This document shows, one piece after another, positions 1-19,891 of a DNA stretch of 52,570 nucleotides (the stretch's first letter is position 1; each line of letters starts with the position of its first letter). The stretch lies in the NCBI GenBank assembly GCA_022545455.1, contig JACZQZ010000003.1, positions 1 through 52,570 of the forward strand, in the 5' to 3' direction. The notes under the pieces are model-generated. The model saw only the letters and a list, made by a program, of their open reading frames with translations, searched no databases and had not been told where the DNA came from. This DNA comes from Pseudomonadota bacterium (lineage in GTDB: Bacteria > Pseudomonadota > Alphaproteobacteria > Rhodospirillales > 2-02-FULL-58-16). The translations under genes were made by a program, and so were the position numbers.

Positions 1-82
1 GCCATCGCCGGCGCCTCCCCTCCTGCCGAGGAAACGGGAAATGCGATCGTATGGGTGCACTTTAGCTGATGCAGGCCACTGT
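1..82 (+). repeat. Partial (right end) copy of the 270-bp four-way-junction intergenic element
   Basis: Nearly identical to 19759-19840 (gccatcgcc..cctcccctcctgccgaggaaacgggaaa.gcgatcgta.gggtgcactttagctgat.caggccact); truncated by the window start. Confidence 0.9.
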
Positions 83-197
83 GCCCCTTCCGCCCCTTAC
101 CGTTGCCTGGCGGCGGCCAAGGGACTAGCCTTTACCGTCCCCAGCCGACGCGGGAACCGGAAGGCGGCGGGAAGCCTTTGAACACGGGAGGTACACC

Positions 198-611
198 ATG
201 GCGAAAGTTTCCTTGAACACCAGGCTCGGCGTTTCCGCCGACGAGGCCTGGAAGCTGATCGGCGGCTTCAACGCGCTGCCCGACTGGCACCCGGCGGTGG
301 AGAAAAGCGAACTGGAGAAGGAAGGCCAGGAGCGCATCCTCACCCTCGTCGGCGGCGCCAAGATCGTCGAACGGCTGGAACGGAGCGACGACGCCGAGCG
401 CGTCTATTCCTATTCCATCCTCAACAGCCCCCTGCCCGTCGCCAACTACAAGGCCACCATCCGCGTCCGGGACGCCGAAGGCGGCGCCTGCGATGTGGAG
501 TGGTCGAGCGAGTTCGATGCCGCCGGCGCCCCCGAAGCGGACGCGGTGAAGGTCATCGAGGGCATCTTCCAGGGCGGCCTGGACAACCTGAAAAAGATGT
601 TCGGCGGCTGA
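198..611 (+). CDS. SRPBCC (polyketide cyclase/MxaD-like) family protein
   Basis: 137 aa ORF, GGAGG RBS, W..IGGFNALPDWHP and YSYSI..SPLPVANY motifs typical of SRPBCC. Confidence 0.85.
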   Translation: MAKVSLNTRLGVSADEAWKLIGGFNALPDWHPAVEKSELEKEGQERILTLVGGAKIVERLERSDDAERVYSYSILNSPLPVANYKATIRVRDAEGGACDVEWSSEFDAAGAPEADAVKVIEGIFQGGLDNLKKMFGG

Positions 612-647
612 GGCCCCCGCGCCGTCGCGGCGGCGGGATGGCGGCGT

Positions 648-908
648 TGGTTTCGGAAATATTCGCGATCGCGCGGAGTATGCTTGCCCCCCTCCGCGTC
701 CATTGCGTTTGAGTTTTTCAACGCGGAGGACGCCGAGGCACGCCGAGGTACGCTGAGAACCCTGAAAGCGAATTTCGAAATTCCGCGCCATGGCAGACGG
801 ATATGCATCTGGCCGCTGGTTTCGGAAATATCCGCGATCGCCCTTAGCACCTTTGCGTCCCTCTGCGTCCTCTGCGTTTAAACTCTATCAACGCCGGGGC
901 ACGCGGGG
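648..908. repeat. REP-like palindromic repeat cluster built from 9-nt ACGC(A/C/G)GAGG units
   Basis: 720-757 aacgcggaggacgccgaggcacgccgaggtacgctgag is an imperfect inverted repeat of 843-878; tggtttcggaaatatycgcgatcgc is directly repeated at 648 and 817. Confidence 0.75.
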
Positions 909-973
909 AATTTTGTCAACGGTGCGCGTTTCATCCCGTCTTCGCCGGTCTCCGCCGTTTCCGTCCTTTCGCC

Positions 974-1366
974 TCACGCGGGTTCGGCGTTGGCCTCGAT
1001 CCACCGGGCGAGGCCGGTCTCCTCGACCTCGCCCGCGGCCAGGCCCAGAATGATCTGGGCTTCGTCGTCCGGCGCGGGGCGGAAACGATACCCGTTGAGT
1101 GCCAGAAACGCCTGTAGACACAGCAATCCGGTCCGCTTGTTGCCATCGGCGAAGGGATGATTGCGGACGATCCCCGTACAATAAGCGGCGGCCAGCCGGA
1201 ATATGCCGGCGTCGCCTTCATATGCATACCGGTCACGGGCCTTGGCGAGGGCGCTTTCCAGCAGCCCCGGATCCCGGAGGCCTTGCGCGCCACCGAACAC
1301 GGCCAACTGTTCGTCGTGAATGGCCAGCACCATCCGCATGGTGAGCCACTTCGGCTCGGCGGTCAC
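974..1366 (-). CDS. doc: Death-on-curing (Doc/Fic) family toxin
   Basis: HPFADGNKRTG Doc-type Fic motif, GLRDPGLLESAL N-terminal motif; overlaps the upstream antitoxin stop. Confidence 0.92.
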   Translation of the reverse strand: MTAEPKWLTMRMVLAIHDEQLAVFGGAQGLRDPGLLESALAKARDRYAYEGDAGIFRLAAAYCTGIVRNHPFADGNKRTGLLCLQAFLALNGYRFRPAPDDEAQIILGLAAGEVEETGLARWIEANAEPA

Positions 1367-1590
1367 TTAGCCAGTTCTTTGAGCGCGTCGCGATGGTCGC
1401 GCATGTATTCCCGCGTCGCCTCCATGACCTTCGCGAAGTCCGGATCATAGGGCGTCAGCCGGAGACCGTCGGGCGTGCGCACGATGAAAAGCTTGTCGCC
1501 CTCCACCACGCCGAGCTTGTCCAGTTCGGCCTTGGGCAGAATCACCCCGTAGGAATTCCCGATCCTGCGGACCGTAACGTTGTCAGCCAA
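1363..1590 (-). CDS. AbrB/MazE-family antitoxin
   Basis: VRRIGNSYGVILPK..L...EGD.L swapped-hairpin motif; probable TTG start at 1590, 5 nt after GGAGG (ORF track starts at 1608). Confidence 0.88.
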   Translation of the reverse strand: MADNVTVRRIGNSYGVILPKAELDKLGVVEGDKLFIVRTPDGLRLTPYDPDFAKVMEATREYMRDHRDALKELAK

Positions 1591-1613
1591 CACGACCTCC
1601 AAAGCCAAAAGAC

Positions 1614-1652
1614 ATTATAACATATATTATAACATTGGCGGGATTTCGTCAA
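1614..1652 (-). promoter_or_regulatory. Sigma70-like promoter with duplicated TGTTATAAT boxes (probable TA operator)
   Basis: Minus strand TTGACG (1652-1647) followed by two TGTTATAAT copies (1634-1626, 1622-1614) in an AT-rich patch. Confidence 0.6.
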
Positions 1653-1711
1653 CGCCTGCGGCGGCCGGGGGCGGCGGTCCTCTCGTCCCTTTCGCCGCCG
1701 GGCGGCGGCCC

Positions 1712-2926
1712 CTACCCCACCGCACGCTTCAGGTTCTCGTCCAGCTTGTCGAGGAACTGCTGGGTGGTCAGCCACGGCTGGTCGGGGCCGATCAGGATCG
1801 CCAGGTCCTTGGTCATGAAGCCCGATTCGACGGTTTCCACGCACACCTTCTCCAGGGTCTCGGCGAAGGCCTGCACGTCGGCCGTGCCGTCGAACTTGCC
1901 CCGGTAGAAGAGCCCCCGCGTCCACGCGAAGATGGAGGCGATGGGGTTGGTCGAGGTCTCCTTGCCCTGCTGATGGAGCCGGTAATGGCGCGTCACCGTG
2001 CCGTGGGCGGCTTCCGCCTCCACCGTGTTCCCGTCCGGCGTCATCAGCACGGACGTCATCAGCCCCAGCGAGCCGAACCCCTGGGCGACGATGTCCGACT
2101 GCACGTCCCCGTCGTAGTTCTTGCACGCCCACACATAGCCGCCGCTCCACTTCATCGCCGCCGCCACCATGTCGTCGATCAGGCGGTGCTCGTAGGTGAT
2201 CTGCTTCTCGGCGAACCTGTCCTTGAAATCGGCCTCGAAGACCTCGGCGAACAGGTCCTTGAAGCGCCCGTCATAGGCCTTCAGGATGGTGTTCTTGGTC
2301 GACAGGTACAGCGGCCAGCCCAGGTCCAGCGCATAATTGAAACACGACCGTGCGAAGCCCCGGATGCTGTCGTCCAGATTGTACATGGCCACGGCGACGC
2401 CGCCGCCGGGAAAGTCGTAGACCTCGCGCTCGACGGGGTCGCCGCCGTCGGCCGGCGTGTAGGTGATCGTCAGCTTGCCCGGGCCCGGAACCACGAAGTC
2501 GGTGGCCCGGTACTGGTCGCCGAAGGCGTGGCGGCCGATGACGATGGGCTTGGTCCATCCCGGCACCAGACGGGGCACGTTCCTGCACACGATGGGCTCG
2601 CGGAAGATGGTGCCGCCGACGATGTTGCGGATGGTGCCGTTGGGCGAGCGCCACATCTGCTTGAGGCCGAATTCCTTCACCCGCGCCTCGTCGGGCGTGA
2701 TGGTGGCGCACTTGACGCCGACGCCGTAGGTCTTGATCGCCTCCGCCGCGTCGATGGTGATCCGGTCCTCGGTCTCGTCCCGCTTTTCGATGCCGAGGTC
2801 GTAGTACTTCAGGTCCACCTCCAGATACGGCACGATCAGCTTGTCCTTGATGAAGGCCCAGATGATTCGCGTCATTTCGTCGCCGTCCAGCTCGACGATG
2901 GGGTTCAGGACCTTGATTTTCGTCAT
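1712..2926 (-). CDS. icd: NADP-dependent isocitrate dehydrogenase
   Basis: [51 protein letters not shown] motifs. Confidence 0.98.
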
Positions 2927-2981
2927 GGGCGGTTCTCCCGGAAAAAATCCAATAAAAACAATAAGTACGCAGGCTCGCCCG

Positions 2982-3566
2982 TCACAGGTGGCTGGTCAGC
3001 ACTACCTCCCGGGGCTCGGGCGCGTCCTCCAGGGCGGTGAACACGTCGTCCACGCCGTCGACCACCGTGAACAGCTCGGCGATGGCCGGATGGGCGAAGC
3101 CGCCGGCGACGATGCCCTGCATCAGCGCCTTGAACGGCCCCCAGTAGCCGCCCACGTCGACCATCACGATGGGCTTGGCGTGCAGTTGAAGCTGCTTCCA
3201 GGTGGTGATCTCGAGGGTCTCGTCCAGGGTGCCCAGGCCGCCGGGCAGAACCACGAAGCCGTCGGACATCTCGAACATGCGGCGTTTGCGCTCATGCATG
3301 CTGCCGACGACGATCAGCTCGGTCACGTCCGGGTTCTCCACCTCGTATTGCATGAGAAAGTCGGGGATGACGCCGATCACTTCTCCGCCACCCTCGAGCA
3401 CGGCTTCGGCGAGGATCCCCATCAGGCCGATACGCCCGCCGCCGTAGACCAGGCGCACGCCGCGCCCGACCATGAGGACCCCCAGCCTTCGCGCCGCCTC
3501 CGTGTACGCCGGGTCGTCGCCCACCTTGGAGCCGCAAAAGACGCAGATGGAGGTGATGGTGGTCAT
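2982..3566 (-). CDS. LOG family nucleotide monophosphate phosphoribohydrolase (TIGR00730)
   Basis: [31 protein letters not shown] motifs; ATG at 3566 preferred. Confidence 0.93.
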
Positions 3567-3611
3567 GGTGCTCTTTCCGCCGCTCCGGGCCCGGGGACCA
3601 TCCCGGGGACC

Positions 3612-3848
3612 ATAATACCAAGGAGCGCTGATCATGATGCATAGAGATCGCGTAGGCGGCTCGTCGGGCAGGAGGAAAGGTGCAGGCGATGCGGCGCATC
3701 GTCAAAACTTTTCGACGCCCTCCGACGGGCCGCATACGCGACCGGAACGGCGGCTTACCAAGGTTTTCGGACGGCGTCGCGCACGCTCCTAGCCGAAAAC
3801 CTTGGTAAGCAGTCTCTATGGGTCATGATCAGCGTTCCTTGGTATTGG
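3612..3848 (-). repeat. Four-way-junction element, 237-bp copy with shortened arm 1
   Basis: 36-bp imperfect TIRs ataataccaaggagcgctgatcatgatgcatagaga / tctctatgggtcatgatcagcgttccttggtattgg; internal gggcagg and ctcctagccg motifs as in other copies. Confidence 0.88.
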
Positions 3849-4042
3849 AGTATCCGCTCCTGCGGTTGCGTTCACCGAATTGTTACCGTGCGCGGGGCGT
3901 TGGAGTTGCTTTTCCCGACGCCGGCCCTTTTAATTCATGGCAACGGCGCCCTGCCATTGCGAGAGCAAGGAATTAGGACCGGCCCGGCGGTTTTCCGATC
4001 TGGGCGGTTCGCCAACCAACCGATGAACACGGGGAGAGTACC

Positions 4043-4513
4043 ATGCGAATCACATCCATAGTGGCCGTCGTGTTGACCCTGGGATTGATCTCGACGGCCA
4101 TGGCCGCGGGCTCGACCAGTTCTTCGAGCCGGCCCGCCGCCAAGCCAAGCACGTATCAGCAAGGGGTGTCGGCCGTGAAGGCCGGCGACTACGGGCGCGC
4201 CCTCGGCCTGTTGCAGAAGGTGGTCCGGGCCAACCCGCGCAACGCCGACGCCTGGAACTACATCGGCTTCAGCCACCGTAACCTGAAGCAGTTGGACCAG
4301 GCCCTGGCCGCCTACACCAAGGCGCTGGCCATCGATCCCGAGCATCGCGGCGCCAACGAGTATCTGGGCGAGCTTTACCTGCAGACGGGCGACCTGGAAA
4401 AGGCCCGGGCACGCCTGAAAACCCTGGACTCCGCGTGCATCTTCGGCTGCGAGGAGTACGACGACCTCAAGCAGGCGATCAAGAAGTACGAGGCGGCTCG
4501 CAAGAGCGGTTGA
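4043..4513 (+). CDS. Exported tetratricopeptide-repeat protein
   Basis: Signal peptide, ADAWNYIG..A...Y.KAL.IDP.H.GANEYLGELY TPR pattern, C-terminal C..GCEEY. Confidence 0.85.
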   Translation: MRITSIVAVVLTLGLISTAMAAGSTSSSSRPAAKPSTYQQGVSAVKAGDYGRALGLLQKVVRANPRNADAWNYIGFSHRNLKQLDQALAAYTKALAIDPEHRGANEYLGELYLQTGDLEKARARLKTLDSACIFGCEEYDDLKQAIKKYEAARKSG

Positions 4514-4631
4514 GCGACCCCCGCCGCCCCTGCCCGTGGTGCCCGCGTTTGATCGGCCGGGATGGGATGGCCGGCGGCGCCGTCGCCTGTTTGCCGCGGC
4601 GGCGCCATCGTCGGCGGTTTGAGTCATCGCC

Positions 4632-5312
4632 ATGATGCTTCCTATGTCCCTGCTTGGCGATTACTGGGCGTCCGTGGCGGCGTTCGCCGTGTTCGGTCTG
4701 CTCCACTCCGTCGGCGCCCAGGAGCCATGCAAGAACGCGCTGGCCCGCTGGACCAGTCCGTTCCTTGTCGAACACTTCTGGCGCGTGCTCTATTGCGGCC
4801 TCAGTTACGCCGCCCTGTACTGGGCCGTCGCCGCCCTGCACTGGGCCCGAAACCTGGACAACGACGTCTGGCTCGTCGTCTATCCGGAATGGCTGTGGCA
4901 GATCGTCACCGCCGTGCACCTGGGTTCCATAGCCTTGCTGTATGCGGCCTTCCTGCAAAGCGATTACCTGGAGTTCCTCGGCCTCACCCAGGCGAAGCGG
5001 GGGATCCTCAAGCTGCTCGGCAGGCCGGTCCGCCAAGCGGACCTCCGGTTGTTCGGAACCCATCGCCTGGTGACGGGCGGCCTGTACGGATGGGTGCGCC
5101 ACCCGATGCTGGCCGCCGGGCTCCTGTTTCTGCTGACCAGCGGGCCGTCGCTCAACAACCTCGTCTATACCGCCATGTATGCGGCCTACATGGTGATCGG
5201 CGGCTATTACGAGGAACGGCGCATGATCAGGATATTCGGACAGGAATACCTCCGCTACCGGCGCCGGGTGGGGGCGTTTTTCCCGCGGTTTCGCCTGGCG
5301 ACGGCGAGGTGA
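4632..5312 (+). CDS. Membrane methyltransferase, ICMT/nurim/MddA-like family
   Basis: Multiple TM segments, F...HS, FLGL.Q, GLY.WVRHPM, EERR....FG..Y..YR..V motifs. Confidence 0.75.
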   Translation: MMLPMSLLGDYWASVAAFAVFGLLHSVGAQEPCKNALARWTSPFLVEHFWRVLYCGLSYAALYWAVAALHWARNLDNDVWLVVYPEWLWQIVTAVHLGSIALLYAAFLQSDYLEFLGLTQAKRGILKLLGRPVRQADLRLFGTHRLVTGGLYGWVRHPMLAAGLLFLLTSGPSLNNLVYTAMYAAYMVIGGYYEERRMIRIFGQEYLRYRRRVGAFFPRFRLATAR

Positions 5313-5315
5313 CCG

Positions 5316-5438
5316 ATGTTGGAAAGGCTGTCGGAATTCTTTTACGATCCCGTGGTGTTCTGGAGTGTCCCCTTGGCGCTGGTTGCGCTCAGGGCCGGCA
5401 TCCGCCGGGTGCGGGCATGGGTTCGCCGGGGCCGCTGA
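5316..5438 (+). CDS. Putative 40-aa single-TM small protein (not in ORF track)
   Basis: ATG 5316 after GAGGTG overlapping the upstream stop; MLERLSEFFYDPVVFWSVPLALVALRAGIRRVRAWVRRGR*. Confidence 0.5.
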   Translation: MLERLSEFFYDPVVFWSVPLALVALRAGIRRVRAWVRRGR

Positions 5439-5534
5439 GGGCGGTGCGGCGCGTCGGCGTTGCGCCGCCCCGTTGGCCGTATTAATGTCGTCCGAAGCAC
5501 GTTTTGGCAAATTCGTTGCACGGTGCATTCCAAG

Positions 5535-6674
5535 GTGAACAGGTCGCTGCTGTTAATCACCGTTGGCGTCGGCGTCGTCGTTCTCGCCATCGGACTGAAC
5601 TACGTTCTTTGGCAGGAGGAGGTGACGGAGGTCGCCCCCCCGGCCGAACAGGTGGTGGCTGGGGACACCGGGCGGACGACGCCCCCCGTTGCGGGCAAGC
5701 CGAAAAAAGAGGTGTCGGACTCCCTCAGGTTCGACGTGGTGCGCGTCACCCCGGAGGGGGAAGCCGTCATGGCGGGACGGGCCAAACCGGGCAGCACCGT
5801 CACCATTCTCGATAAAGACAAGTCCCTCGGCGAGGTCACCGCCGATGAGCGCGGCGAATGGGTGTTCGTGCCGGAGAAACCGCTGGCGTCCGGCAGCCGC
5901 CAGTTGGGCCTGGAGATACGCAAGAAGAGCGGCGAAACCGTGCAATCGGAATCGGTGGTCGTGCTGGTGGTGCCGGAAAAGGGCAAGGACATCGCCGGAC
6001 GTCCCACGGAGAAGCCGTCTCAGCCGCTGGCCCTGATGGTTCCCCGCAAGGGGACGGGTCCCAGCACGGTCCTGCAGAAACCGGCGATCGGGGCGCCGGA
6101 ACCGGCGGCCGGACCGACCAGGTTCGCGGCCGTGGCGCCGACCCCCGGGGGCGTGCCGCCCGCGCCCGGGGCCGCGCCGGGGGGATCCGTGGCCGCGCCG
6201 CCGAAACCCTCGGGCGGGGGCATGGGTTTCAGGCTCAGCGTCGATACGGTGGATTACGACGACGCCGGGCGTTTAAGCCTCAGCGGCCGCGCCCCGCCCG
6301 GCGCCCTGGTGCAGCTTTATCTGAACAACCGTTTCATCGGGCGCACCAGGGCCGGCAGCGACGGTATCTGGCGCTTAAGCCCCGACAGAACCGTCGTGCC
6401 CGGGCTTTATACCCTGCGTGTCGATCACGTGGACGCGAACGGCAAGGTCCTGGCGCGCCTGGCCTTTCCGTTCGCCCGCGCCGAGCCATTGACGGGGATT
6501 CGCCCGGGTACGGTGGTCGTCGTCCAGCCGGGCAACAGTCTGTGGCGTCTGGCGCGGCGCGCATACGGCGCCGGCATGCAGTACACGATGATCTTCGAGG
6601 CCAACAGGGACCAGATCCGCGATCCGGATTTGATCTATCCCGGACAGGTCTTCACCCTGCCCGTCACCAACTGA
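5535..6674 (+). CDS. Membrane-anchored LysM peptidoglycan-binding protein with two Ig-like domains
   Basis: N-terminal TM, FDVVRV...G..V.AGRA.PG repeat domain, C-terminal VQPGNSLWRLA...YG.G..Y..IFEANRDQIRDPDLIYPGQ. Confidence 0.9.
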   Translation: MNRSLLLITVGVGVVVLAIGLNYVLWQEEVTEVAPPAEQVVAGDTGRTTPPVAGKPKKEVSDSLRFDVVRVTPEGEAVMAGRAKPGSTVTILDKDKSLGEVTADERGEWVFVPEKPLASGSRQLGLEIRKKSGETVQSESVVVLVVPEKGKDIAGRPTEKPSQPLALMVPRKGTGPSTVLQKPAIGAPEPAAGPTRFAAVAPTPGGVPPAPGAAPGGSVAAPPKPSGGGMGFRLSVDTVDYDDAGRLSLSGRAPPGALVQLYLNNRFIGRTRAGSDGIWRLSPDRTVVPGLYTLRVDHVDANGKVLARLAFPFARAEPLTGIRPGTVVVVQPGNSLWRLARRAYGAGMQYTMIFEANRDQIRDPDLIYPGQVFTLPVTN

Positions 6675-6676
6675 TA

Positions 6677-7189: not shown

Positions 7190-7446
7190 GCAGTTTCCCT
7201 CGAAACCAACCGCTTCGCGTCCCTAAGGAACATGGGGCCTGCGCAGGGCCGCCGGCAAGGCCCCCGAAGGGATAGTCCGGCCGGGCCACCCGAACCGGCG
7301 CCGCCGGCCGCAGGGGGACAAATACCGGATAGGCGCACGCAAGGCTTAACGTCGCCCCCCGCCGATAGTAGAATGGCCCCGTCGGGCATTTCGAATTACC
7401 GTTTACATATCCTCGATCGTGATAAGGGCCGCATAAAGGCTGCATC

Positions 7447-8133
7447 TTGCTGAAAATCGTCTTCGTACGCATCAACCGTGCCGGCTGGCCGTTCATCGGA
7501 CTCTTCGCCGCCGCTTCCGTGGGCCTGGCGTACGTTGCCCCGGCGGCGGGGTGGATCGGCGCCCTCCTGACCGCCTGGTGCATATATTTCTTCCGCGATC
7601 CCGACCGGGTGACGCCGACCCGCCAGGGGCTGATCGTCAGCCCCGCCGATGGCGTCGTGCAACTGATCGACCAGGCGCCGCCGCCCTCGGAGCTGGGGAT
7701 GGGAGATCAGCCCCGCACGCGGATCGCCATCTTCATGAGCGCGTTCGACGTCCATGTGAACCGCATCCCGTGTGACGGCGTCATCACCGGCCTGGCGTAC
7801 AGGCCGGGAAAGTTCTTCAACGCCTCGCTCGATAAATCCAGCGAGTTCAACGAGCGCCAAGCCGTGCGCCTGACGACCCCGGACGGCCACGACATCGCCT
7901 TCGTCCAGATTGCCGGCCTGATCGCCCGGCGCATCCAGTGCGAGCTCGCCAAAGGCCAGGAAGTGCGCGCCGGCATGCGTTTCGGCCTCATACGCTTTGG
8001 CAGCCGCGTCGACGTGTACCTGCCGGACGGCGTGGCGCCACTGGTCGCCCTCGGGCACAAAACGGTGAGCGGGGAAACCGTCATCGCCGATGTCCGCGCC
8101 CAGGAGCCGGCACGCGACGGCGAAGTCCGCTAA
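7447..8133 (+). CDS. psd: Phosphatidylserine decarboxylase
   Basis: YFFRDPDR, SPADG, IFMS.FDVHVNR, FGLIRFGSRVD self-cleavage motif. Confidence 0.96.
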   Translation: MLKIVFVRINRAGWPFIGLFAAASVGLAYVAPAAGWIGALLTAWCIYFFRDPDRVTPTRQGLIVSPADGVVQLIDQAPPPSELGMGDQPRTRIAIFMSAFDVHVNRIPCDGVITGLAYRPGKFFNASLDKSSEFNERQAVRLTTPDGHDIAFVQIAGLIARRIQCELAKGQEVRAGMRFGLIRFGSRVDVYLPDGVAPLVALGHKTVSGETVIADVRAQEPARDGEVR

Positions 8134-8399
8134 TGGTAAGAATCCAACATATGGTGCCCATAGGACGGCTTTCCGAGTTCGTCCGGCTAGGCGCGGGACG
8201 CGCGGTGATGCTGGCGCATCACACGCGTCGCGCAACGACGCCGGCGGGCTCGGAAAGCCGCCCTATGGGTCGCCTATCCCGCTTCCTCGGGGCGTCAAGC
8301 GCGCTTACCGATGCGACAGCATCGCCGCCGCACGCTTTCCTGCCGAGGAAACGGGATAGGCGATCCTATGGGTACCATATGTTGGATTCTTACCACTAG
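8130..8399 (+). repeat. 270-bp four-way-junction element between psd and pssA
   Basis: 36-bp TIRs ctaatggtaagaatccaacatatggtgcccatagga / tcctatgggtaccatatgttggattcttaccactag; arm 1, ccctatggg hairpin, arm 2. Confidence 0.92.
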
Positions 8400-8410
8400 G
8401 AGGCCGCCCC

Positions 8411-10150: not shown

Positions 10151-10237
10151 GATCCTCCCCTGCCCACAATCCTTCCTGAAAAAAACGTCTGAGCACCTTA
10201 ACAGAAATTTCGCGGCGCCGGACTCTTGAAACGCGGA

Positions 10238-12313: not shown

Positions 12314-12316
12314 CGG

Positions 12317-13201: not shown

Positions 13202-13213
13202 CGCCGGCGTCCC

Positions 13214-14146
13214 TCAGCCGAACCGGATCTTGGGATTGAGAAAGGCATACCCCACATCGGCGATGGTCTGGGTGGCCACGGCGACGAACACGGCGACCAT
13301 GGCGCAGGCCTCGATGACGAAGATATCCTGATTGAGCGACGCCTCCAGCAACAGCGCGCCGAAGCCCTTGTAAGCGAAAAAGAACTCGACGACGATGACG
13401 CCCGAAAGCAGCCAGTTGATCTGCAGCATGATCACCGTGAACGGCGCGATCAGGGCGTTGCGCAAGGCGTGGCGCACGATCACCCGGCCATAGGGCAGAC
13501 CCTTGAGGACGGCGGTGCGGATATAGGGCGTGGTCATCACGTCGGCCATGGAGGCGCGCGTCATGCGCGCCACGTAGCCCATGTCGTAGATCACCAGCAC
13601 CAGCACCGGCAGGATCAGCTCCTTGAACGAAAAGCCTTCCGCCATGCCGCTGGTCCCGGGCAGCCATTTAAGCCAGAAGACGAAGACGGCGGACAGAAAC
13701 ACGGCGCTGGCGAATTCGGGCACCGAGGTGGTGACGATGCTGGTCACCGAGATGGCCCGGTCCAGCCGCGAGCCCTCGCGCATGCCGGCCGCCACCCCGA
13801 GGACCAGGGAAACGGGGATCATGACGGCGAAGGTGACCAGGCCCAGGATGGCGGTGTTGGCGAGCCTTGGCCACAGGATCTCCGATACCGGCACCTTGAA
13901 GCGCAGGGAATCGCCGAAATCGCCGTTGACGAAGTTCCACAGCCAGTTTCCGTACCGCACCCAAAGGGGCTGGAAATAGCCGTGGGCTTCCAGCCACAGG
14001 GTGCGCTGCTCGTCGGTGGAATAGGGCCCCAGCACCTTGGTGGCGACGCTGCCCGGGGAAATCTCGAGAAGCAGGAACACCAGCACCGACACGGCGAACA
14101 TGGTGATCGCCATGGTGCCGAGCCGTCTTAATACGAATACTGCCAT
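13214..14146 (-). CDS. Peptide ABC transporter permease (DppB-like)
   Basis: GDFG.S, RMTRASM..V....YIRTA.LKGL....VI.RHALRNA, LNPKIR. Confidence 0.93.
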   Translation of the reverse strand: MAVFVLRRLGTMAITMFAVSVLVFLLLEISPGSVATKVLGPYSTDEQRTLWLEAHGYFQPLWVRYGNWLWNFVNGDFGDSLRFKVPVSEILWPRLANTAILGLVTFAVMIPVSLVLGVAAGMREGSRLDRAISVTSIVTTSVPEFASAVFLSAVFVFWLKWLPGTSGMAEGFSFKELILPVLVLVIYDMGYVARMTRASMADVMTTPYIRTAVLKGLPYGRVIVRHALRNALIAPFTVIMLQINWLLSGVIVVEFFFAYKGFGALLLEASLNQDIFVIEACAMVAVFVAVATQTIADVGYAFLNPKIRFG

Positions 14147-14266
14147 TCGCCGCTCGCTCCACCCCGCCGGCCCGGGAACGCACCGGCCCCGTTGCCGGGC
14201 CCCGTCCGCGCCGGTGCTAGGGAAACACCGCCACGGCGTGCCGTCGGCCGCCGTCCGCAGAAGCCG

Positions 14267-15970
14267 TCACGCGATCCACACGGCGTTCAACTGGTGATAG
14301 ATGGTCGGGTGCAACGTGTACCCCTGCACCTTCCTGTGGCCGGCGGCGAAGACCGACCGCCACAGCGGCTGGGCGATCACCGCGTCGTCCTGCAAAATCT
14401 TTTGCAACCTGGCCATGGTGGTGCGGCGCTCGTTCACGTCCAGCATCCCGCTGGCGCTGTCGAGCAGCCGGTCGAACTCCGGGTTGCTGTAATGGGTCTC
14501 GTTCCACGGCACGCCCGAGCGGTAGGCCAGGTTCAACACCATGACGCCAAGCGGGCGGTGGGTCCAGGCGGTGAAGCCGAACACCGTCTTGTCCCAGATG
14601 TCCTGGTACTGGGCGTTGGGCATGACGTTGATGCGGAGGCGAATGCCGGCCGGCTTGCACATCTCGGCCATCGCCTGGGCGACCGCCAACTCCCACGGGG
14701 GGTCCTTCCGGCAATCGATGCTGAGGTCCAGGCCCTGCCCATGGCCCGCCTGGGCGAGCAGGTGCCGGGCCCGCGCATAGTCCTGTTTCGGCAACGGCAT
14801 CGGCGCGTATTCGGGATGGACGGGCGCCACGTGGTGGTCCTGGGCGGGTGCCCCCCTGCCCCGGTGGGCGAGATCGAGAAGCCGCTGATGATCCTGGCAC
14901 AGGCGCACGGCCGTGCGCACGCGCACGTCATCGAAGGGTTTCTTGTCCACCTGCATGCGGGCGACGCCGGTCTGCGCGGTGACCGCCTCGAACAGCCGGG
15001 CATGGGGGATGGCCTCGACCACGTCGATCTGCCCGACGGCCGTCTCGTGCACCAGGTCCACCTGGCCCGAAGCCAGCGCCGCCAGTCCGGTGGCCGCTTC
15101 GTCGCCGTGGTCGATATAGGTGACGGAATCCAGATGGGCCTCGTCCCCCCAGTAGTCCCTGCGCCGCGCCAGCACCGCCTTTTCGCCGACCGCGAACCCC
15201 TTCAACAGGAACGGACCGGTCCCCACGGGGTTCCTGGCCAGGTCGCCGCCGTCGTCTTCGAAGCGGCGATGCACGATGGCGGTCGGATAGTTATAGAGGT
15301 TCTCCGGAATCGCCAGCTCCGGACGGTTCAGGTGCAAACGCACCGTGTACTGGTCGATCTTCTCGACGGCGCCCGCGGTCATGGTTCTGGAGAGGATCGG
15401 CGTGCCGTCCCTGGTCCTCTTGCCGGTGTCCGTCCCGGTGACCATGGAGGCGAACAGGCCCTGGTTGGAGGAGCCGGTCCGGGGATCGAGCCAGCGGGTG
15501 AAATTGTAGACCACGTCGTCGGCGTTGAACTCATCCCCGTTGGACCACTTCACGCCGCGGCGCAGCCCGAGCGTCCAGGTCCTGAGGTCATCGGACGCGC
15601 TCCAGCGCCAGCACAGATGGGGCCGGGTGATGTTGTCGGGCCCGGTGACGAACAGGTATTCCACCATCTGCCGGGCGACGTTGGACTTCTCCGTCCAATC
15701 GAAGGTCGCCGGGTCGGTCATTTCCTGCACGCGCATGGAGATGCGCAGGTTCCCGCCCTTCTTCGGGGCCGGGGCCGGGGCCTGGGCCTGGGCCGTGGAG
15801 ACCAGGGACTCGCCGGTGATCCTGGCCGCCGCGGCATAGGCCGCCGCCGCCGACATCCCGAGCAGGGTCACGGTGCGCAGGAACCCGCGCCTGTCGACGA
15901 CACCCGTGCGCAACTGCTCTTCCAGCTCCGGAACATATGGGTGCGCCGGCCGTGGACGCTCGCGTGCCAT
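14267..15970 (-). CDS. Peptide ABC transporter substrate-binding protein (family 5), Tat-exported
   Basis: RRGFL twin-arginine motif, [30 protein letters not shown]. Confidence 0.92.
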
Positions 15971-16160
15971 GGGGGGTTCCTCCCTGCGCGCGTGGTTTTG
16001 GCGCGTCCAGTCTATTGGAAAAAGGCCGTCGGCGGTATCCCGACCGCGATTCTCCGTCCGGCGGCGGCCCCGGAATCGGCGTGGGCGTTGGCGAAATTCT
16101 ATGCCATGGTGCGCCGGCGGTCATCCCCGCGGCAATGGAAAGACACAGGACTTAACGGCA

Positions 16161-17480
16161 ATGGCGGCGGAAAACTGGAACCGCCGGGTGTGGCGGCTGG
16201 CCGGACCCATCATCCTGGCCAACGTTTCGGTGCCCCTGCTGGGCGCCGTCGATACGGCCGTCGTCGGCCACCTGCCGGGTCCCCAGTCCATCGGCGCCGT
16301 CGCCGTGGCGGCGCTGATCTTCAATTTCATTTACTTCGGCTTCAACTTCCTGCGCATGGGAACGACGGGCCTGACCGCCCAGGCGCTGGGCGCGGGCGAC
16401 GCCGAAGAGGTGCGCGCGTCGCTTGCCCGGGCGCTGCTCGTGGCGGCGGCGCTGGGCGCCGGGCTGGTGGCGTTGCAGGGACCCGTGGCGTGGGCCGCGT
16501 TCGGGCTGATCGACGCCAGCGCCGGCGTCTCGCCCCTGGCCGAATCCTATTTTTCCATCCGCATCTGGTCGGCGCCCGCGGTGCTCGCCAACTTCGCCAT
16601 TCTCGGCTGGTTCATCGGCGTCCAGAACACCCGCGCCGCGCTGTTCCTTCAGGTGGCCATGAACGGCGCCAACATGGCGCTCGATCTGTGGTTCGTATTC
16701 GGCCTGGGCCTCGGGGTCGCCGGCGTGGCGTGGGCGACCCTGATATCCGAGGTGGGGGCATTGGCCCTCGGCCTGGTGCTGGTGCGGCGCACCGTGCGCA
16801 CCGTGGGAGGCCGCTGGCGTCTGGACCGCGCCGTCGACGGCGCGCGGCTGAAGCGCATGGTGGCGGTCAACCGGGACATTTTCATCCGGTCCCTGTGCCT
16901 GCAGGCGGCCTTTTTCCTGTTTACCGCCATGGCCGCGCGCATGGGAGACGTGGTGCTGGCCGCCAATGCGGTGCTGCTCATCTTCCAGAGCCTGCTGTCC
17001 TACGGACTCGACGGCTTCGCCCACGCGGCCGAGGCCCTCACCGGGGGCGCCGTCGGGGCCGGGGACCGCGCGCGGTTCCGGGGCGCGGTCAGGGCCACGA
17101 GCCGGTGGGCGCTGGTCTTTGCCGGGGGCTATGCGGTGCTGTATGGGGCCCTCGGCCCGGTGCTGATCGACGTCATCACCGACGTGTCCGAGGTGCGCGT
17201 CACCGCCCGCGCCTATCTTCCCTGGGTCGTCCTGTCCCCCCTCGTTTCCGTGTGGAGCTTCCAGTTGGACGGCATCTTCATCGGCGCCACGCGGACGGCC
17301 GAGATGCGCAATGCCATGGCCGTTTCCCTGGCCCTCTACGTCGCCGCCGTCTGGGCGTTGATGCCGGTGATGGGAAACCACGGCCTGTGGCTGGCGTTCA
17401 TGGTGCTGATGGCAGCGCGGGCGGCGACCCTGGCGCTCCTTTATCCGCGGCTGGAGCGCGCCGTCGGCGGCGCCCCCTGA
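16161..17480 (+). CDS. dinF: MATE efflux transporter, DinF-like
   Basis: LAGPIILANVSVPLLGAVDTAVVGHL, FLRMGTTGLTAQ, LDGFAHAAE, LDGIFIGAT; ATG at 16161. Confidence 0.9.
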   Translation: MAAENWNRRVWRLAGPIILANVSVPLLGAVDTAVVGHLPGPQSIGAVAVAALIFNFIYFGFNFLRMGTTGLTAQALGAGDAEEVRASLARALLVAAALGAGLVALQGPVAWAAFGLIDASAGVSPLAESYFSIRIWSAPAVLANFAILGWFIGVQNTRAALFLQVAMNGANMALDLWFVFGLGLGVAGVAWATLISEVGALALGLVLVRRTVRTVGGRWRLDRAVDGARLKRMVAVNRDIFIRSLCLQAAFFLFTAMAARMGDVVLAANAVLLIFQSLLSYGLDGFAHAAEALTGGAVGAGDRARFRGAVRATSRWALVFAGGYAVLYGALGPVLIDVITDVSEVRVTARAYLPWVVLSPLVSVWSFQLDGIFIGATRTAEMRNAMAVSLALYVAAVWALMPVMGNHGLWLAFMVLMAARAATLALLYPRLERAVGGAP

Positions 17481-17489
17481 GGCGGACGC

Positions 17490-17759
17490 CCAGTACCCTC
17501 TATCACAATAGGATGGTACGTGTGATCGTCTTTTCGCGTCTTTTGGGCAGGAAGCGTCGCGCTGGCGATGCGAGGCATCGTCAAGCGGCGCTGACGTCCC
17601 CAAAAGGCGCGAAAAGCGACCCTTCGGGCGGCCATGGGCGGCCATCGGACGTCGTCACGCGGCTCTCGTGATGCGCCGCATCACTTCGAACCACGCTCCT
17701 AGCCGAATGGCCGCCCATGGCCGTCACACGTGTCATCCTATTGTGATAGAGGGTACAAG
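17490..17759 (-). repeat. 270-bp four-way-junction element (reverse orientation)
   Basis: 36-bp TIRs ccagtaccctctatcacaataggatggtacgtgtga / tcacacgtgtcatcctattgtgatagagggtacaag; central cccttcggg; gggcagg and ctcctagccg motifs. Confidence 0.92.
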
Positions 17760-17799
17760 GGGGTTTTCCTTCCGCCGCGATGGCGTTTATGGTTACCCC

Positions 17800-18396
17800 A
17801 TGTCACGGCGAAGGAACGCCCTTGTATCCGCGTGCGCCGCGACCGTTATCGCCGTCTTCACGGCGACCGCGGTCGTGCCCCCCGCCTTCGCCGACCCGCC
17901 GCCCTGGGCTCCGGCCCACGGCTACCGGGCCAAGAAGGGCAAGAAGTTCAAGAAATACAAGCACGCTCTCCCACCCAGCACCTTCGGCATCGACCTTGGC
18001 CAGTGCAACCGGGACCTGCTGGGCGGGGCGCTCGGCGCCGCCGCCGGCGCCGCCCTCGGGACCCAGGTTGGAAAAGGGAGCGGCAAGACGGCGGCGATCG
18101 TCGGCGGCGCCATCCTTGGCGCGCTTGTCGGCGGCAGCCTGGGCCGGGCCATGGACCAGGTCGACCAGAACTGCGTCGGCCAGGCCCTGGAGCGCGCCGA
18201 AGACGGACAAACCATCGTCTGGAACAATCCCCAAACGGGCACCCGCTACCAACTGACGCCGACAAAAATCTACAAGGACAGGCAAAACCGCTACTGCCGC
18301 GAATACATCACCAGGGGCACCATCGACGGCAAGGAGCAACAGCTCTACGGCAAGGCGTGCCGGCAGCCCGACGGCAGTTGGGAGCTCGTCCAATAA
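17800..18396 (+). CDS. 17-kDa surface antigen (RT0821/Lpp0805 family) with glycine zipper
   Basis: Signal peptide, DPPPWAPAHGYR, glycine zipper, WNNP.TG, YCREY...IDG.....YG.ACRQPDGSW. Confidence 0.88.
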   Translation: MSRRRNALVSACAATVIAVFTATAVVPPAFADPPPWAPAHGYRAKKGKKFKKYKHALPPSTFGIDLGQCNRDLLGGALGAAAGAALGTQVGKGSGKTAAIVGGAILGALVGGSLGRAMDQVDQNCVGQALERAEDGQTIVWNNPQTGTRYQLTPTKIYKDRQNRYCREYITRGTIDGKEQQLYGKACRQPDGSWELVQ

Positions 18397-18663
18397 CGCC
18401 CGCATAGACCCCGGCAAGCGGGGCGGCGCCGGCTTGGCCGGTCCCGGGAGGCGCCGCCCTCAGGCGACCGCCAAGCGGACGCGGCCCGCGGATCCGGGCA
18501 TTACCCACCGAATATCCACCGAAATCTATCCGTTCGTATAGGTGTCCTATGCCAGTGGATAATTTTCCTGCCGTGCCGAACGGCGTGACAATACGGAAAA
18601 TTGCGGACACCCGCCGGGTGATCCGTATTTCGGAATTCCGTCGTTCGAAGAGGAAGATCCCCC

Positions 18664-19548
18664 ATGACCGCGTCATTCCATGGTTTGTCCGTCCCACCCG
18701 AGCAAAGCCTGTCCCATTACCTTAAGGAAATCCGCAAATTCCCCATGCTGCACGCCGACGAGGAGTTGAGACTCGCCCGGCGCTGGACCAGGTACGAAGA
18801 CACCAAGTCGGCCAACAAGCTGGTGAACAGCCACCTGCGCCTGGTGGCCAAGATCGCCATGGGGTACCGGGGATACGGCCTGCCCTTGGGGGAGCTCATA
18901 TCGGAAGGCAACGTGGGCCTGATGCAGGCGGTCAAGCGGTTCGATCCCGAACGCGGGTTCCGCTTTTCCACCTACGCCATGTGGTGGATCCGCGCCGCCA
19001 TCCAGGAATATATCCTGCACTCGTGGTCGCTGGTGAAGATGGGGACGACGGCGGCGCAGAAGAAGTTGTTTTTCAACCTGCGCAAGCTCAAGAACCGAAT
19101 CCAGATCATCGAGGACGGCGAACTGGCTCCCGAGCACGTGACCAGTTTCGCCAAGCACCTGAAGGTGTCGGAAGACGAGGTGATCAGCATGAACCGCCGC
19201 CTGTTGAAACCCGATCACTCCCTCAACACCCCCGTGTACGATGACGGCGAACGGGAATGGCTGGAGGAGCTGGTGGACGAATGCGACGACCACGAAACCG
19301 TGCTCGCCGAACGTCAGGAGCTTGGCGACCGGCGCCGGCTTCTGGCGCGGGCGATGAAAACCCTGAACGACCGCGAGCGCAATATCCTCACCGAGCGCCG
19401 CCTCAAGGAAAAACGCACCACGCTGGAAGGCTTGAGCCGGACGCACAGCATCTCGCGCGAACGGGTGCGCCAGATCGAGATGCGCGCCTTCGACAAGGTG
19501 CAGAAGTCCGTGCGCAACGCCTCCCTCCAGCAACGGCTGCCCGCGTGA
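18664..19548 (+). CDS. rpoH: RNA polymerase sigma-32 factor
   Basis: HLRLVAKIAMGYRGYGLP, YAMWWIRA.IQEYIL.SWSLVK, RpoH box QKKLFFNLR, ISRERVRQIE. Confidence 0.95.
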   Translation: MTASFHGLSVPPEQSLSHYLKEIRKFPMLHADEELRLARRWTRYEDTKSANKLVNSHLRLVAKIAMGYRGYGLPLGELISEGNVGLMQAVKRFDPERGFRFSTYAMWWIRAAIQEYILHSWSLVKMGTTAAQKKLFFNLRKLKNRIQIIEDGELAPEHVTSFAKHLKVSEDEVISMNRRLLKPDHSLNTPVYDDGEREWLEELVDECDDHETVLAERQELGDRRRLLARAMKTLNDRERNILTERRLKEKRTTLEGLSRTHSISRERVRQIEMRAFDKVQKSVRNASLQQRLPA

Positions 19549-19570
19549 GCGCACCGGCCGGCCCCACACC

Positions 19571-19840
19571 CTAGTGGCCTTTATCAGCTAAATTGCGCCC
19601 CTACGACGGCGTTGCGAGGTTTCCGGCTAGGAGCGCGTCGCGCCTTGGTGTGCGTGCACCACAAGCGGCGCGCGACGACGTCCGGAAGCCTCGCAACGCC
19701 GCCCTTCGGGTCGCTTTTCCCGTCCCCTCGGGGCGTCGGGAAGGCTTGCCGATGGGCCGCCATCGCCCGCGCCTCCCCTCCTGCCGAGGAAACGGGAAAA
19801 GCGATCGTAGGGGTGCACTTTAGCTGATACAGGCCACTAG
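19571..19840 (+). repeat. 270-bp four-way-junction element downstream of rpoH
   Basis: 36-bp TIRs ctagtggcctttatcagctaaattgcgcccctacga / tcgtaggggtgcactttagctgatacaggccactag; arm 1, cccttcggg, arm 2. Confidence 0.93.
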
Positions 19841-19844
19841 CCAC

Positions 19845-19885
19845 TTGACTCAGGTCAAGGACTCCAGCCGCCAATTCGATAAGAT
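19845..19885 (+). promoter_or_regulatory. FNR/FixK-type box with class II promoter geometry
   Basis: Palindrome TTGAC-TCAG-GTCAA (19845-19858); TAAGAT -10-like hexamer at 19880-19885. Confidence 0.65.
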
Positions 19886-19891
19886 TCGAGC

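Follow-up and report, generated by a model that had tools for sequence, protein, structure and literature searches.

What keeps one folded shape constant in an intergenic element whose stem sequences differ between copies, and what moves such an element? The window (the whole 52,570-nt stretch of alphaproteobacterial DNA that we analyzed) had been reported in a preliminary description to hold five copies in both orientations, three of them complete and exactly 270 bp long. All five were located where they had been placed. The 270 bp held for the three complete copies as first delimited and corresponds to an element of 264 nt bordered by C-TA at its left end and by TA-G at its right end. Named by the type of their terminal inverted repeats (TIRs), the copies are the following:

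19574 to 19837 (+), D-type copy, 264 nt, 3' of a sigma-70-family gene, with perfect CTA...TAG flanks (TA at 19572 to 19573 and 19838 to 19839)
1 to 79 (+) (or 1 to 80), D-type contig-end fragment, the right-hand 79 nt, cut by the contig start
8133 to 8396 (+), B-type copy, 264 nt, between psd and pssA, with TA flanks at 8131 to 8132 and 8397 to 8398
17493 to 17756 (-), C-type copy, 264 nt, 3' of a MatE gene, with degenerate flanks CA / AA
3615 to 3845 (-), E-type copy, 231 nt, tips ATACC...GGTAT, with flanks TA (3613 to 3614) and TG (3846 to 3847)

The fragment at the contig start comprises part of arm 2 and the right TIR, followed by TG, and is 95% identical to 19759 to 19838; elements lie within 60 nt of 89 of the 382 contig ends in the window's genome. 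The shorter E-type copy has lost 33 nt from the arm 1 tip. The B-type copy, the only one with its TIR type in this genome, is flanked by genes with Pfam matches to PS_Dcarbxylase and CDP-OH_P_transf, and the TAA stop codon of psd is made up of the left TA flank and the first A of the copy.

The family is a very abundant, noncoding MITE (miniature inverted-repeat transposable element). In the window's genome, nhmmer returned 236 nonoverlapping hits that cover 1.43% of the 2.76-Mb draft, 57 of them full length. TIR ends were counted as 54+60 for type E, 43+43 for D, 26+35 for C, 20+19 for G, 17+15 for F, 2+2 for H, and 1+1 for B. The fixed length that had been proposed is a strong mode but not a rule: of the 56 full-length copies examined, which come from many genomes, 49 have 263 to 265 nt. 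The window's genome has a class of ~185 nt lacking most of arm 1, and classes of ~326 to 341 and ~384 to 395 nt in which one arm or both contain a 62-nt repeat that is nested. Two nested composites (507 and 589 nt) are also found in this genome, and deletion derivatives and tiny remnants occur in the family. Matches were present in 24 of 41 related genomes, including 13 of 14 of the same taxonomic family; sister families gave matches in 10 of 26 searched, and other families of the class in only 2 of 120. The range of the element covers an order of Alphaproteobacteria that are uncultured and come from marine sediment. A search of Rfam gave no match, in line with its not having been recognized as a named family in the preliminary description, and a literature search returned no description of it.

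Insertion occurs at TA within CTAG-like targets, with duplication of the TA. Empty orthologous sites, which the preliminary description had suggested looking for at psd-pssA and elsewhere, were found. The window's genome (G000) and G001 have a filled B site; in G002, G003, G004, and G012, the site is empty, and the net gain of the filled allele is 266 nt (264 + TA). At the E site, two same-genus genomes carry empty alleles with the sequence GACC-ATAG-AGTA, giving a net insertion of 233 (231 + 2). Both nested insertions targeted the CTAG in the arm 1 internal loop of another copy, and CTAG stood on both sides of all six copies examined in long-read genome G041. In the flank profile, C-T-A precedes GT or AT, which is invariant. 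The CTAGT-like tip noted earlier is therefore composed of a TA duplication, target context, and the GT or AT tip of the element. Among D, C, F, and G copies, only a minority had identical TA flanks on the two sides (D, 8 of 19; C, 6 of 17; F, 1 of 7; G, 5 of 11). At the C site, sister genomes and metatranscriptome contigs have 5 to 31 nt of other filler and no clean empty site, and the "empty" alleles of the D site are likewise not clean. The ATACCA-tipped E type possibly duplicates a 3-bp TWA (TAA or TTA) instead: a 3-bp direct repeat accompanies 17 of 32 E copies and two insertion sequence (IS) copies, whereas the window's E copy fits 2 bp.

Folding recovered the four-way junction that had been proposed, with the same order in each complete copy: terminal stem P1, arm 1, a 9-nt mini-hairpin, and arm 2. 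Minimum free energies were -192.6, -193.7, and -179.8 kcal/mol (z-scores of -18.8, -15.5, and -16.8), and none of 200 shuffles folded as well. In the D-type copy, with columns referring to A2, an alignment of 43 copies from several genomes, the parts are as follows:

19574 to 19605 (+), 5' strand of P1 (left TIR, 32 nt), A2 columns 1 to 33, followed by a lone junction A at 19606
19607 to 19701 (+), arm 1, A2 columns 34 to 130, helices 2 to 4
19702 to 19710 (+), 9-nt mini-hairpin CCCNNNGGG, A2 columns 131 to 139
19711 to 19804 (+), arm 2, A2 columns 140 to 238, helices 6 to 9, followed by a junction T at 19805
19806 to 19837 (+), 3' strand of P1 (right TIR, 32 nt), A2 columns 239 to 270

In arm 1, a basal helix is followed by an internal loop bearing the conserved motifs CGGCTAGGAGCG / GCGACGACGTCCG, then by a middle helix and a hairpin at the tip. 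Arm 2, its relative through the two-fold pseudo-symmetry of the element, has the conserved blocks GGGCGTC, CTTGACGATG...CATCGCC, and TCCTGCC. The junction letters described from the window hold across the 43 copies: the columns of the consensus GA / CGG...CCG / CCCNNNGGG / TCGC...(G/A)CGA / TC are invariant or at least 90% conserved. Within the mini-hairpin, 30 copies have CG at pair 133/137 and 12 have GC.

The distinctive trait of the family is that subfamilies with different ends all retain one cross-shaped folded core of ~200 nt, in which two hairpin arms of roughly 95 nt each and the 9-nt mini-hairpin join P1 at a four-way junction. Subfamily consensuses agree at 120 to 187 of about 200 core positions (61 to 94%), whereas TIR columns 3 to 32 agree at 8 to 23 of 30 (8 to 18 once the pair of G and the G041 type is set aside). 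The TIRs are thus highly divergent, in keeping with the first description. Types F and G illustrate the contrast, with 187/200 identical core positions and 14/30 in the TIRs. Both sides have changed in 62 of 93 consensus pairs, and in P1 in 28 of 31. Paired cells amounted to 96.8%, a level reached by 0 of 500 shuffles, versus 73.6% after shuffling and 31 to 42% after sliding; the covariation score was 0.601 versus 0.181. The best-conserved columns are unpaired loop and junction letters, and the middles of the stems vary. The early observation that stems change on both strands together around fixed junction and loop letters was thus borne out. Near-constant length, conserved loops and junction, and covarying stems together argue that the core is maintained by selection on a folded single strand (RNA or DNA), and we infer that it functions in this form.

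The TIR types appear, from end comparisons, to track different IS630-family insertion sequences, types E, F, and G by looser resemblance. In the same-genus genome G001, L204:1254-2479 is a 1,226-bp IS (flanks cTA|GTGGCCTG...); the first 23 positions of its right end include 20 that agree with the D-type MITE end. The two overlapping open reading frames of this IS match DDE_3, HTH_32, and NCBIfam NF033545 ("IS630 family transposase"), and DDE_3 was found in 3 of 3 same-genus genomes. The match is close for the D type only. Types E, F, and G resemble, in other genomes, the ends of three IS630-family elements of a related long-read genome: E agrees with IS630-family ends of G041 and G023 at 20/30 and 17/27 positions (counted by eye), G with such an end (G041/G023) at 17/27, and F has its first 8 nt in common with one (G041/G023). 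No partner IS was found for types B, C, and H. The preliminary description had raised the possibility that each TIR type matches the ends of a different IS with merely coincidental internal similarity. TIR types do match different IS ends, but the internal similarity is not coincidental, because the common core, at 61 to 94% consensus identity, covaries. It had also called the element nonautonomous, with an enzyme encoded elsewhere; indeed, none was found in the window or in the assembled genome, where neither an IS630-family gene nor a copy of the G001 IS was detected; at 92.6% completeness in 191 contigs, this draft may lack such sequences.

The family is probably a superfamily of 264-nt MITEs moved in trans by IS630/Tc1-mariner-type DDE transposases, with the folded core under selection. 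Such transposases would mobilize the MITEs by cut-and-paste into TA, usually within CTAG, and the TIRs of each subfamily would fit a different IS630-family IS of this lineage. The terminal stem would seem "interchangeable" because both ends must match the same transposase. Our best guess for the core is either a cis action, while transposition takes place or afterwards, or an action as RNA upon read-through transcription. In the in vitro IS630/Tc1 transposition described in PMC2170065, TIRs suffice and no hairpin is required, so a cis role for the core would lack precedent in that account.

A less convincing reading, which we consider rather unlikely, takes the element for an ordinary selfish MITE whose structure is not under selection. 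Covariation of P1 would then stem solely from the need of both TIRs to fit one transposase, the arms would keep their pairing through DNA processes in palindromes (templated quasi-palindrome correction, known from the literature, or repeated capture of one abundant filler in gap repair), and the conserved blocks would reflect recent common ancestry. The two-fold pseudo-symmetry suits this reading, as do the about equal mean folds of the two strands of the whole element (-178.9 versus -180.5 kcal/mol) and the existence of deletion derivatives and tiny remnants. The F, G, and D cores are 88 to 94% identical and therefore young relative to each other. Also compatible are the lack of a promoter- or terminator-like site in copies C and D (the two that were scanned) and the lack of a clear orientation bias toward neighboring genes in tandem spacers (16 same versus 9 opposite; P = 0.23; crude gene caller). 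However, the top strand of arm 1 has 120 G:T versus 11 A:C, and the bottom strand of arm 2 mirrors this with 116 versus 12. Because elements lie in both orientations, a strand-symmetric DNA process should not yield this ~10-fold, strand-specific excess. The conserved loop and junction letters beside variable stem middles, and the 263 to 265 nt kept across many genomes, also speak against unselected structure. Finally, private substitutions are ~3-fold less frequent in the conserved columns of the core than in TIRs: 20/4634 versus 45/3072 in G000 (59/4950 in variable core columns) and 17/1754 versus 39/1214 in 20 copies from four other genomes (68/2174 in variable core), although this test partly remeasures between-lineage conservation, notably in the small groups among those 20 copies.

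Alternatively, in line with the repeated structured RNA that the preliminary description also allowed, the core could be a functional structured RNA spread by the MITE and acting in the transcripts of neighboring genes, for example, as a processing, stability, or insulation element; this too we find doubtful. Transcription of either strand would yield an identically shaped RNA whose 5' arm is well formed. Covariation around conserved loops and the scarcity of private substitutions in the conserved core fit this idea. Only the strand of each arm that reads inward tolerates G:U; consequently, in 43 of 43 copies, either transcript has its better arm on the 5' side (in arm 2, the bottom strand folds better in all 43). 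The B copy lies within the psd-pssA pair along the direction of transcription, and elements are present in contigs of four metatranscriptome runs, but these RNA data are contigs whose depth sums over many copies and may include DNA carry-over. The lack of a promoter-like site in the C and D copies, the orientation counts in tandem spacers, and the lack of an Rfam family also weigh against an RNA role. Enrichment is in divergent (promoter-side) spacers (15/45 versus a 16% background with the crude gene caller), not 3' of genes.

The first reading, recognition of folded single-stranded DNA by a tyrosine recombinase (attC-like) or, in the manner of REP/REPIN or IS200/IS605 ends, by an HUH/Y1 transposase, irrespective of TIR sequence, would suit the extreme stability as DNA (-111.6 kcal/mol; z-score of -14.4), the very different TIRs, and the strand-specific arm asymmetry, but it is very improbable given the TA duplications at CTAG-like sites (which neither attC recombination nor HUH transposition is known to produce), the match of TIR types to IS630-family ends, the conserved tips (GT or AT after TA), and the search of the window's genome for Y1_Tnp, which found no match and no Y1/HUH transposase.

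Several known repeats can be compared with the element. Stowaway-type MITEs, eukaryotic and Tc1/mariner dependent, combine TA target duplication, TIRs matching the transposase, high copy number, and strong fold-back potential, as the present family does. Stowaway families have TIRs and target duplication in common and are not known to share internal sequence; here, the pattern is reversed, with the core in common and differing TIRs. The bcr1 element of the Bacillus cereus group (~155 bp, 5-bp direct repeats, demonstrated transcription) differs from our 264-nt element with TA duplication and, by end similarity, IS630-family partners. As described in PMC2229807, the alphaproteobacterial CIR (Caulobacter, Brucella) is likewise intergenic with terminal TA and 5' and 3' sections that each form a long stem-loop, but it differs in being tabulated without TIRs and with a methylation-site motif. 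Correia/NEMIS elements (Neisseria) are similar in terminal TA, ~24-bp TIRs, the existence of several end variants, transcripts with long stem-loops, and size classes differing by an internal block (PMC2229807); they differ in being 107 to 155 bp, A+T rich, and a single long hairpin rather than a four-way junction. As far as that account goes, no partner IS is named for Correia, and the pneumococcal repeat unit (RUP) is the sole exception mentioned for the repeats it treats. RUP has a length of 107 bp, 9-bp TIRs, one partner IS (IS630-Spn1), and ~100 copies per genome, and its mobilization in trans by an IS630-family transposase was proposed from TIR similarity and TA insertion (PMC2229807). 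The present bacterial MITE resembles RUP in this proposed mobilization and differs from it in its 264 nt, its 32-nt TIRs, and at least seven TIR types on one four-way-junction core.

All five stretches that the preliminary description had singled out as copies of one repeat were present as placed, and they could be oriented and aligned almost without gaps. By its delimitation, three of them measure 270 bp. The one at 3612-3848 is shortened by a 33-nt deletion in the tip of arm 1; at 1-80, only the right end of an element is left, the rest having been cut off by the start of the contig. Named by subfamily (types B to H, according to the terminal inverted repeat [TIR]), the copies in the window are as follows.

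1..79, fragment of a type D copy
3615..3845, reverse strand, type E copy
8133..8396, forward strand, type B copy
17493..17756, reverse strand, type C copy
19574..19837, forward strand, type D copy

The complete copies folded into a terminal stem made by the two TIRs (P1) and two long arms (arm 1 and arm 2) with a 9-nt mini-hairpin between them. Their minimum free energies were -180 to -194 kcal/mol (z = -15.5 to -18.8; none of 200 shuffles was as good), and folding with DNA parameters gave the same shape (-111.6 kcal/mol, z = -14.4). The element had earlier been left without a named family, and the whole window indeed contained no Rfam match at the gathering score. With E values up to 1, the region 17400-19900 yielded a single sub-threshold match, which lay outside the elements, and none within them. 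A plasmid collection likewise gave no match to the element, and we found no description of the family in the full-text literature within a limited collection of papers. The family appears to be undescribed.

We then counted copies in the 2.76-Mb draft genome (191 contigs) by nhmmer, with a profile built from the copies in the window. There were 236 nonoverlapping matches covering 39,538 bases (1.43% of the genome): 57 full length, 68 cut by contig ends and 111 internal partial matches. Roughly a quarter of the contig ends (89 of 382) lay within 60 nt of a copy, indicating that the repeat fragments the assembly. By their ends, the elements fell into at least seven types, with counts on the two strands of 54+60 (E), 43+43 (D), 26+35 (C) and 20+19 (G); the rarer types were F (17+15), H (2+2) and B (1+1). 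Of 56 full-length copies, drawn from our genome and others, 49 measured 263 to 265 nt from tip to tip. A class of about 185 nt lacks most of arm 1, classes of about 326 to 341 and 384 to 395 nt have an additional G+C-rich repeat of 62 nt in one arm or in both, at corresponding positions, and two composite copies measured 507 and 589 nt.

The 62-nt repeat, which is absent from the copies in the window, has a very high G+C content; its two short hairpins are bordered by CCCCGGGG-like sequence. It had 34 matches in the draft genome (e.g., C28:9390-9520 and C82:18311-18700). Of these, 26 were inside 264-nt elements or at most 120 nt from them, in both arms and sometimes in tandem, and the other 8 were elsewhere in the genome. 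Its presence in the arms accounts for the size classes near 326 and 390 nt.

Comparison with related genomes revealed how copies arrive. The psd-pssA spacer, which had been proposed as a place to look for an empty site, is filled by copy B in our genome and in one same-genus genome and is empty in two other same-genus and two same-family genomes. The empty allele reads ...GTCCG-GTAG-GAGG... and the filled allele reads ...GTCCG-CTA[ATGG...CCAC]TAG-GAGG..., a net gain of 266 nt (264 + 2) that defines a TA target duplication. Two same-genus genomes lack copy E and read GACC-ATAG-AGTA at its site, a net difference of 233 nt (231 + 2). The empty alleles of the C and D sites were unclean: sister genomes and environmental contigs have unrelated filler of 5 to 31 nt there. 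The fillers at 17485-17760 and 19572-19829 were AAAGC, GCCCGGGG and stretches of 14, 16 and 31 nt, and their differences indicate that these intergenic spots vary among strains. The insertion of copy B also exchanged the stop codon of psd, from ...CGG TAG in the empty allele to ...CGC TAA in the filled one (window 8130-8135 and 8397-8399); the TA of the new stop codon is the duplicated target, and its last A is the first base of the element. In the empty alleles, only a few nucleotides separate psd from pssA; in the filled ones, the 264-nt element lies between them.

The flanks of other copies agreed with this target. Two nested insertions (F-type in C-type and C-type in G-type) both lay in the CTAG of the conserved arm-1 motif CGGCTAGGAGCG, and CTAG was present on both sides of all six copies in a related long-read genome (G041). 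The flank profile was C, T, A; the next two letters were always GT in types D, C, F, and G and always AT in types E and B. The CTAGT-like tip of the preliminary description was therefore correctly seen but combines the target context, the duplicated TA and the two letters at the tip of the element. In type E, a 3-bp direct repeat (TAA, TTA, or TGA) fit 17 of 32 copies and also both examined copies of an E-like insertion sequence (IS), whereas the type E copy in the window fit a 2-bp duplication, so that the duplication of this type is either TA or TWA. At two loci of the long-read genome (L170 and L171; contig C1 at about 705 kb and contig C14 at about 50 kb), an IS630-family IS abuts the TA beside a MITE copy, the junction reading ...GAAAGTGGGTAC, then TA, then GTGCTTAG.... 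The CTAG at the borders of the elements is thus itself a target for further IS630-type insertion.

These features are those of a MITE: a length of 264 nt with 32-nt TIRs (95.3% of P1 cells were paired across 43 copies), many dispersed copies, and a target duplication with filled and empty alleles at the B and E sites. Duplication of TA, often within CTAG, is characteristic of IS630/Tc1-mariner elements. Elements of the IS630 family duplicate TA and require only the transposase and the TIRs, according to the available text of PMC2170065. We did not detect an IS630/Tc1-mariner transposase in the draft genome (92.6% complete), where DDE_3, a domain of IS630-family transposases, and DDE_Tnp_4 had no matches and DDE_Tnp_1 matched one 60-residue fragment. 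All three other same-genus genomes have DDE_3 matches, as do 14 of 41 related genomes. A search of the draft genome for autonomous copies, as pairs of TIR ends more than 450 nt apart, gave four candidates; the two inspected, on contigs C121 and C178, were remnants or unrelated neighbors. One of them is a tiny solo hairpin remnant (C121:9880-9930), where some 28 nt from the left TIR of type F run directly into about 12 nt of the right tip.

The closest partner came from a same-genus genome (G001), at a locus that we call L204.

L204:1254-2479, 1,226 bp, same-genus IS, both flanks reading cTA followed by GTGGCCTG...

This IS was not found in our assembly by blastn. When the printed ends were counted by hand, the first 23 positions of its right end included 20 that agreed with the end of D-type MITEs; an offset-limited comparison gave 18 to 19 of 27. 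Beyond the matching end, the two elements were unrelated. Two overlapping open reading frames of the IS matched DDE_3 and HTH_32, as well as the NCBIfam model NF033545 (IS630 family transposase; profile positions 105-298 and 5-112). The transposase is split between these frames (154 and 270 amino acids; L204:1268-2403, reverse strand), so that the gene is either broken or read with a programmed frameshift.

A close autonomous relative was found for type D only, with looser ones for types E, F, and G. The long-read genome has 67 DDE_3 matches and several IS630-family groups with ends resembling MITE types. One IS end (ATACCA(T/A)CG(G/A)GCATT...) matched type E at 20 of 30 positions by hand count, another (GTGCTTAGTTTCG...) matched type G at 17 of 27 positions, and a third (CTA and then GTGTCCTGATC...) has its first 8 nt in common with type F. 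In another genome, the IS end ATACCAACCAGCATG... matched type E at 17 of 27 positions. We found no partner IS with matching ends for types B, C, and H. From these comparisons of sequence, we infer that the repeats form a MITE superfamily probably mobilized by IS630-family transposases. The same type of evidence underlies the assignment of an IS630-family partner to the textbook bacterial MITE RUP of pneumococcus, in the available text of PMC2229807. The "interchangeable" terminal stem of the preliminary description is explained by the two ends of each subfamily fitting one transposase.

Two other readings of the ends fell away. An integron attC-like site recognized as a folded single strand, to which the elements had been likened, is very unlikely given the TA duplication, the conserved GT/AT tips and TIRs that match IS ends. 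A link to REP/REPIN elements with RAYT, or to IS200/IS605-type ends, found no support, as Y1_Tnp (PF01797; Y1, HUH) had no match in the draft genome. The mobility mechanism of the elements is ordinary.

The interior of the elements is not. MITE families are usually defined by their ends, with arbitrary interiors; here, this pattern is reversed, with a conserved and covarying interior and ends that seem to have been exchanged to fit different IS630-family transposases. We aligned 43 full-length copies in 270 almost gap-free columns; 19 came from our genome and represent six TIR types, and the remaining 24 belong to other genomes. RNAalifold predicted 93 pairs, 62 of which had changed on both sides with pairing kept. 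Standard pairs occupied 96.8% of cells versus 73.6% with the 3' letters shuffled (none of 500 shuffles reached 96.8%), and 31 to 42% of cells paired when partners were slid by 1 to 3 columns; the covariation score was 0.601 versus 0.181. Both-side changes were seen in 28 of 31 pairs of P1. In arm 1, they affected 12 of 20 pairs of the base helix and, higher up, 6 of 9 and 3 of 7. In arm 2, three of the four helices together had 12 such pairs out of 18, and the five-pair tip helix had none. The arm stems and P1 thus covary, as the preliminary description had anticipated. Invariant or nearly invariant columns comprised the junction nucleotides (GA, CGG/CCG, TCGC/GCGA, and TC), the mini-hairpin stem, the internal loops and the hairpin tips, and the variable columns were the stem middles. 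By eye, a loop-loop pairing between UAGGAG of arm 1 and CUCCU of arm 2 was rejected because variants on the two sides were unmatched, and a reading of AGGAG as a Shine-Dalgarno sequence with a start codon was dropped.

Subfamily consensus sequences agreed far better in the core, the approximately 200 nt inside P1, than in the TIRs: 187/200 versus 14/30 positions for F and G, 181/200 versus 16/30 for D and F, and 132/198 versus 10/30 for D and E. The ends have therefore been replaced on a kept core or have evolved very fast. Of the selected geometry proposed earlier, the interior part stands, and the part concerning the ends does not, as the TIRs fit IS630-family ends. A covarying four-way-junction core under exchangeable TIRs is unexplained by what is known of such transposons.

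To look at constraint on individual copies, we counted private substitutions (present in no more than two copies of their subfamily) in 48 copies from our genome (6 D, 13 C, and 29 E); the 24 aligned copies outside our genome served to define which columns are conserved. There were 20 in 4,634 site-copies of the conserved core, 59 in 4,950 of the variable core and 45 in 3,072 of the TIRs, a deficit in the conserved core (Fisher P = 3.6e-5 and 2.4e-6) that persisted against the TIRs within G/C and within A/T positions. Singletons in 20 copies from four other genomes behaved similarly (conserved core, 17/1,754; variable core, 68/2,174; TIRs, 39/1,214; P = 2.3e-6 and 1.4e-5), the conserved core being lower than the variable core in all four genomes and lower than the TIRs in three. 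Purifying selection on the core after insertion, with the TIRs decaying, would give such a deficit, although rare variants, above all in small groups, are partly source-lineage differences that re-measure family-wide conservation.

The arms also differed between strands. On the aligned strand, mismatched cells were symmetric in P1 (22 G:T versus 33 A:C), strongly skewed in arm 1 (120 G:T versus 11 A:C, over 19 versus 7 columns) and about seven of each kind in arm 2; since related copies share changes, column counts (19 versus 7 and 16 versus 7) are safer than cell counts. The reverse complement was the mirror image, with 116 G:U versus 12 A:C in arm 2 and 9 versus 23 in arm 1. In all 43 copies, fold energy favored the top strand for arm 1 (mean, -68.1 versus -58.6 kcal/mol) and the bottom strand for arm 2 (-64.0 versus -54.6 kcal/mol); the whole element had no net strand preference in fold energy. 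Hence, the better hairpin at either end is formed by the strand that runs inward from the tip. The elements occur in both orientations, which excludes a genome-wide mutational strand bias as the source of this asymmetry. It points to constraint on the single-stranded form of each arm, either in DNA at the transposon ends or in RNA, where it would be the 5' arm whichever strand is transcribed. The mirror-image bias is a concrete finding outside the predictions of current Tc1/IS630 transposition models.

Genomic context argues against a simple RNA role. Copies C and D, the two scanned, contained no promoter-like or terminator-like sites. Among 45 copies placed with a crude home-made gene caller, 25 were in tandem, 15 in divergent and 5 in convergent spacers, compared to a background of 67%, 16%, and 17% (chi-square P = 0.006), and those in tandem spacers showed no orientation bias (16 along the genes and 9 against; P = 0.23). 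The divergent excess indicates enrichment in promoter-side spacers rather than downstream of genes, and a terminator role was rejected, with 5 of 45 scorable copies in convergent spacers by the same gene caller. Contigs of four metatranscriptome runs covered elements at a high summed depth, which adds up many copies and may include DNA carry-over.

One further reading we hold only tentatively, as rather doubtful: the 200-nt core may be a functional folded module, of RNA or single-stranded DNA, that reads alike from both strands and is selected on the inward strand of each arm, with TIRs repeatedly changed between IS630-family transposases. If so, inserted copies would be under purifying selection for the work of the core as their TIRs decay, and the family would be a mobile structured element serving itself or its host, beyond transposon debris. 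The family also offers a natural system for asking how nonautonomous elements switch partners and whether a MITE interior can be selected as a synapsis-aiding cruciform, a folded single strand, or an RNA.

The elements are concentrated in one order. A D-type query matched 24 of 41 related genomes (13 of 14 in the same family and 10 of 26 in other families of the order). Of 120 genomes representing further families in the class, only 2 matched at an E value of 1e-8 or lower. In a motif scan with one genome per species, which gave at least 116 stretches, at least 31 of the 116 listed were true copies; the remaining 85 had no nhmmer match and were chance matches in G+C-rich genomes. All true copies among the matches listed came from metagenome-assembled genomes, labeled Rhodospirillales, Rhodospirillaceae, Kiloniellales/Kiloniellaceae, Thalassospiraceae, MarineAlpha3, Alphaproteobacteria, or Proteobacteria. 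Sequencing runs containing the region were marine-sediment or marine metagenomes from several studies. A repeat model would improve the assembly and annotation of these widespread marine-sediment Alphaproteobacteria, which are known only from metagenomes. The window also contains two local direct repeats unrelated to the element, at 645-879 (66-nt unit, 169 nt apart, 79% identity) and 24641-24855 (95-nt unit, 120 nt apart, 86% identity).
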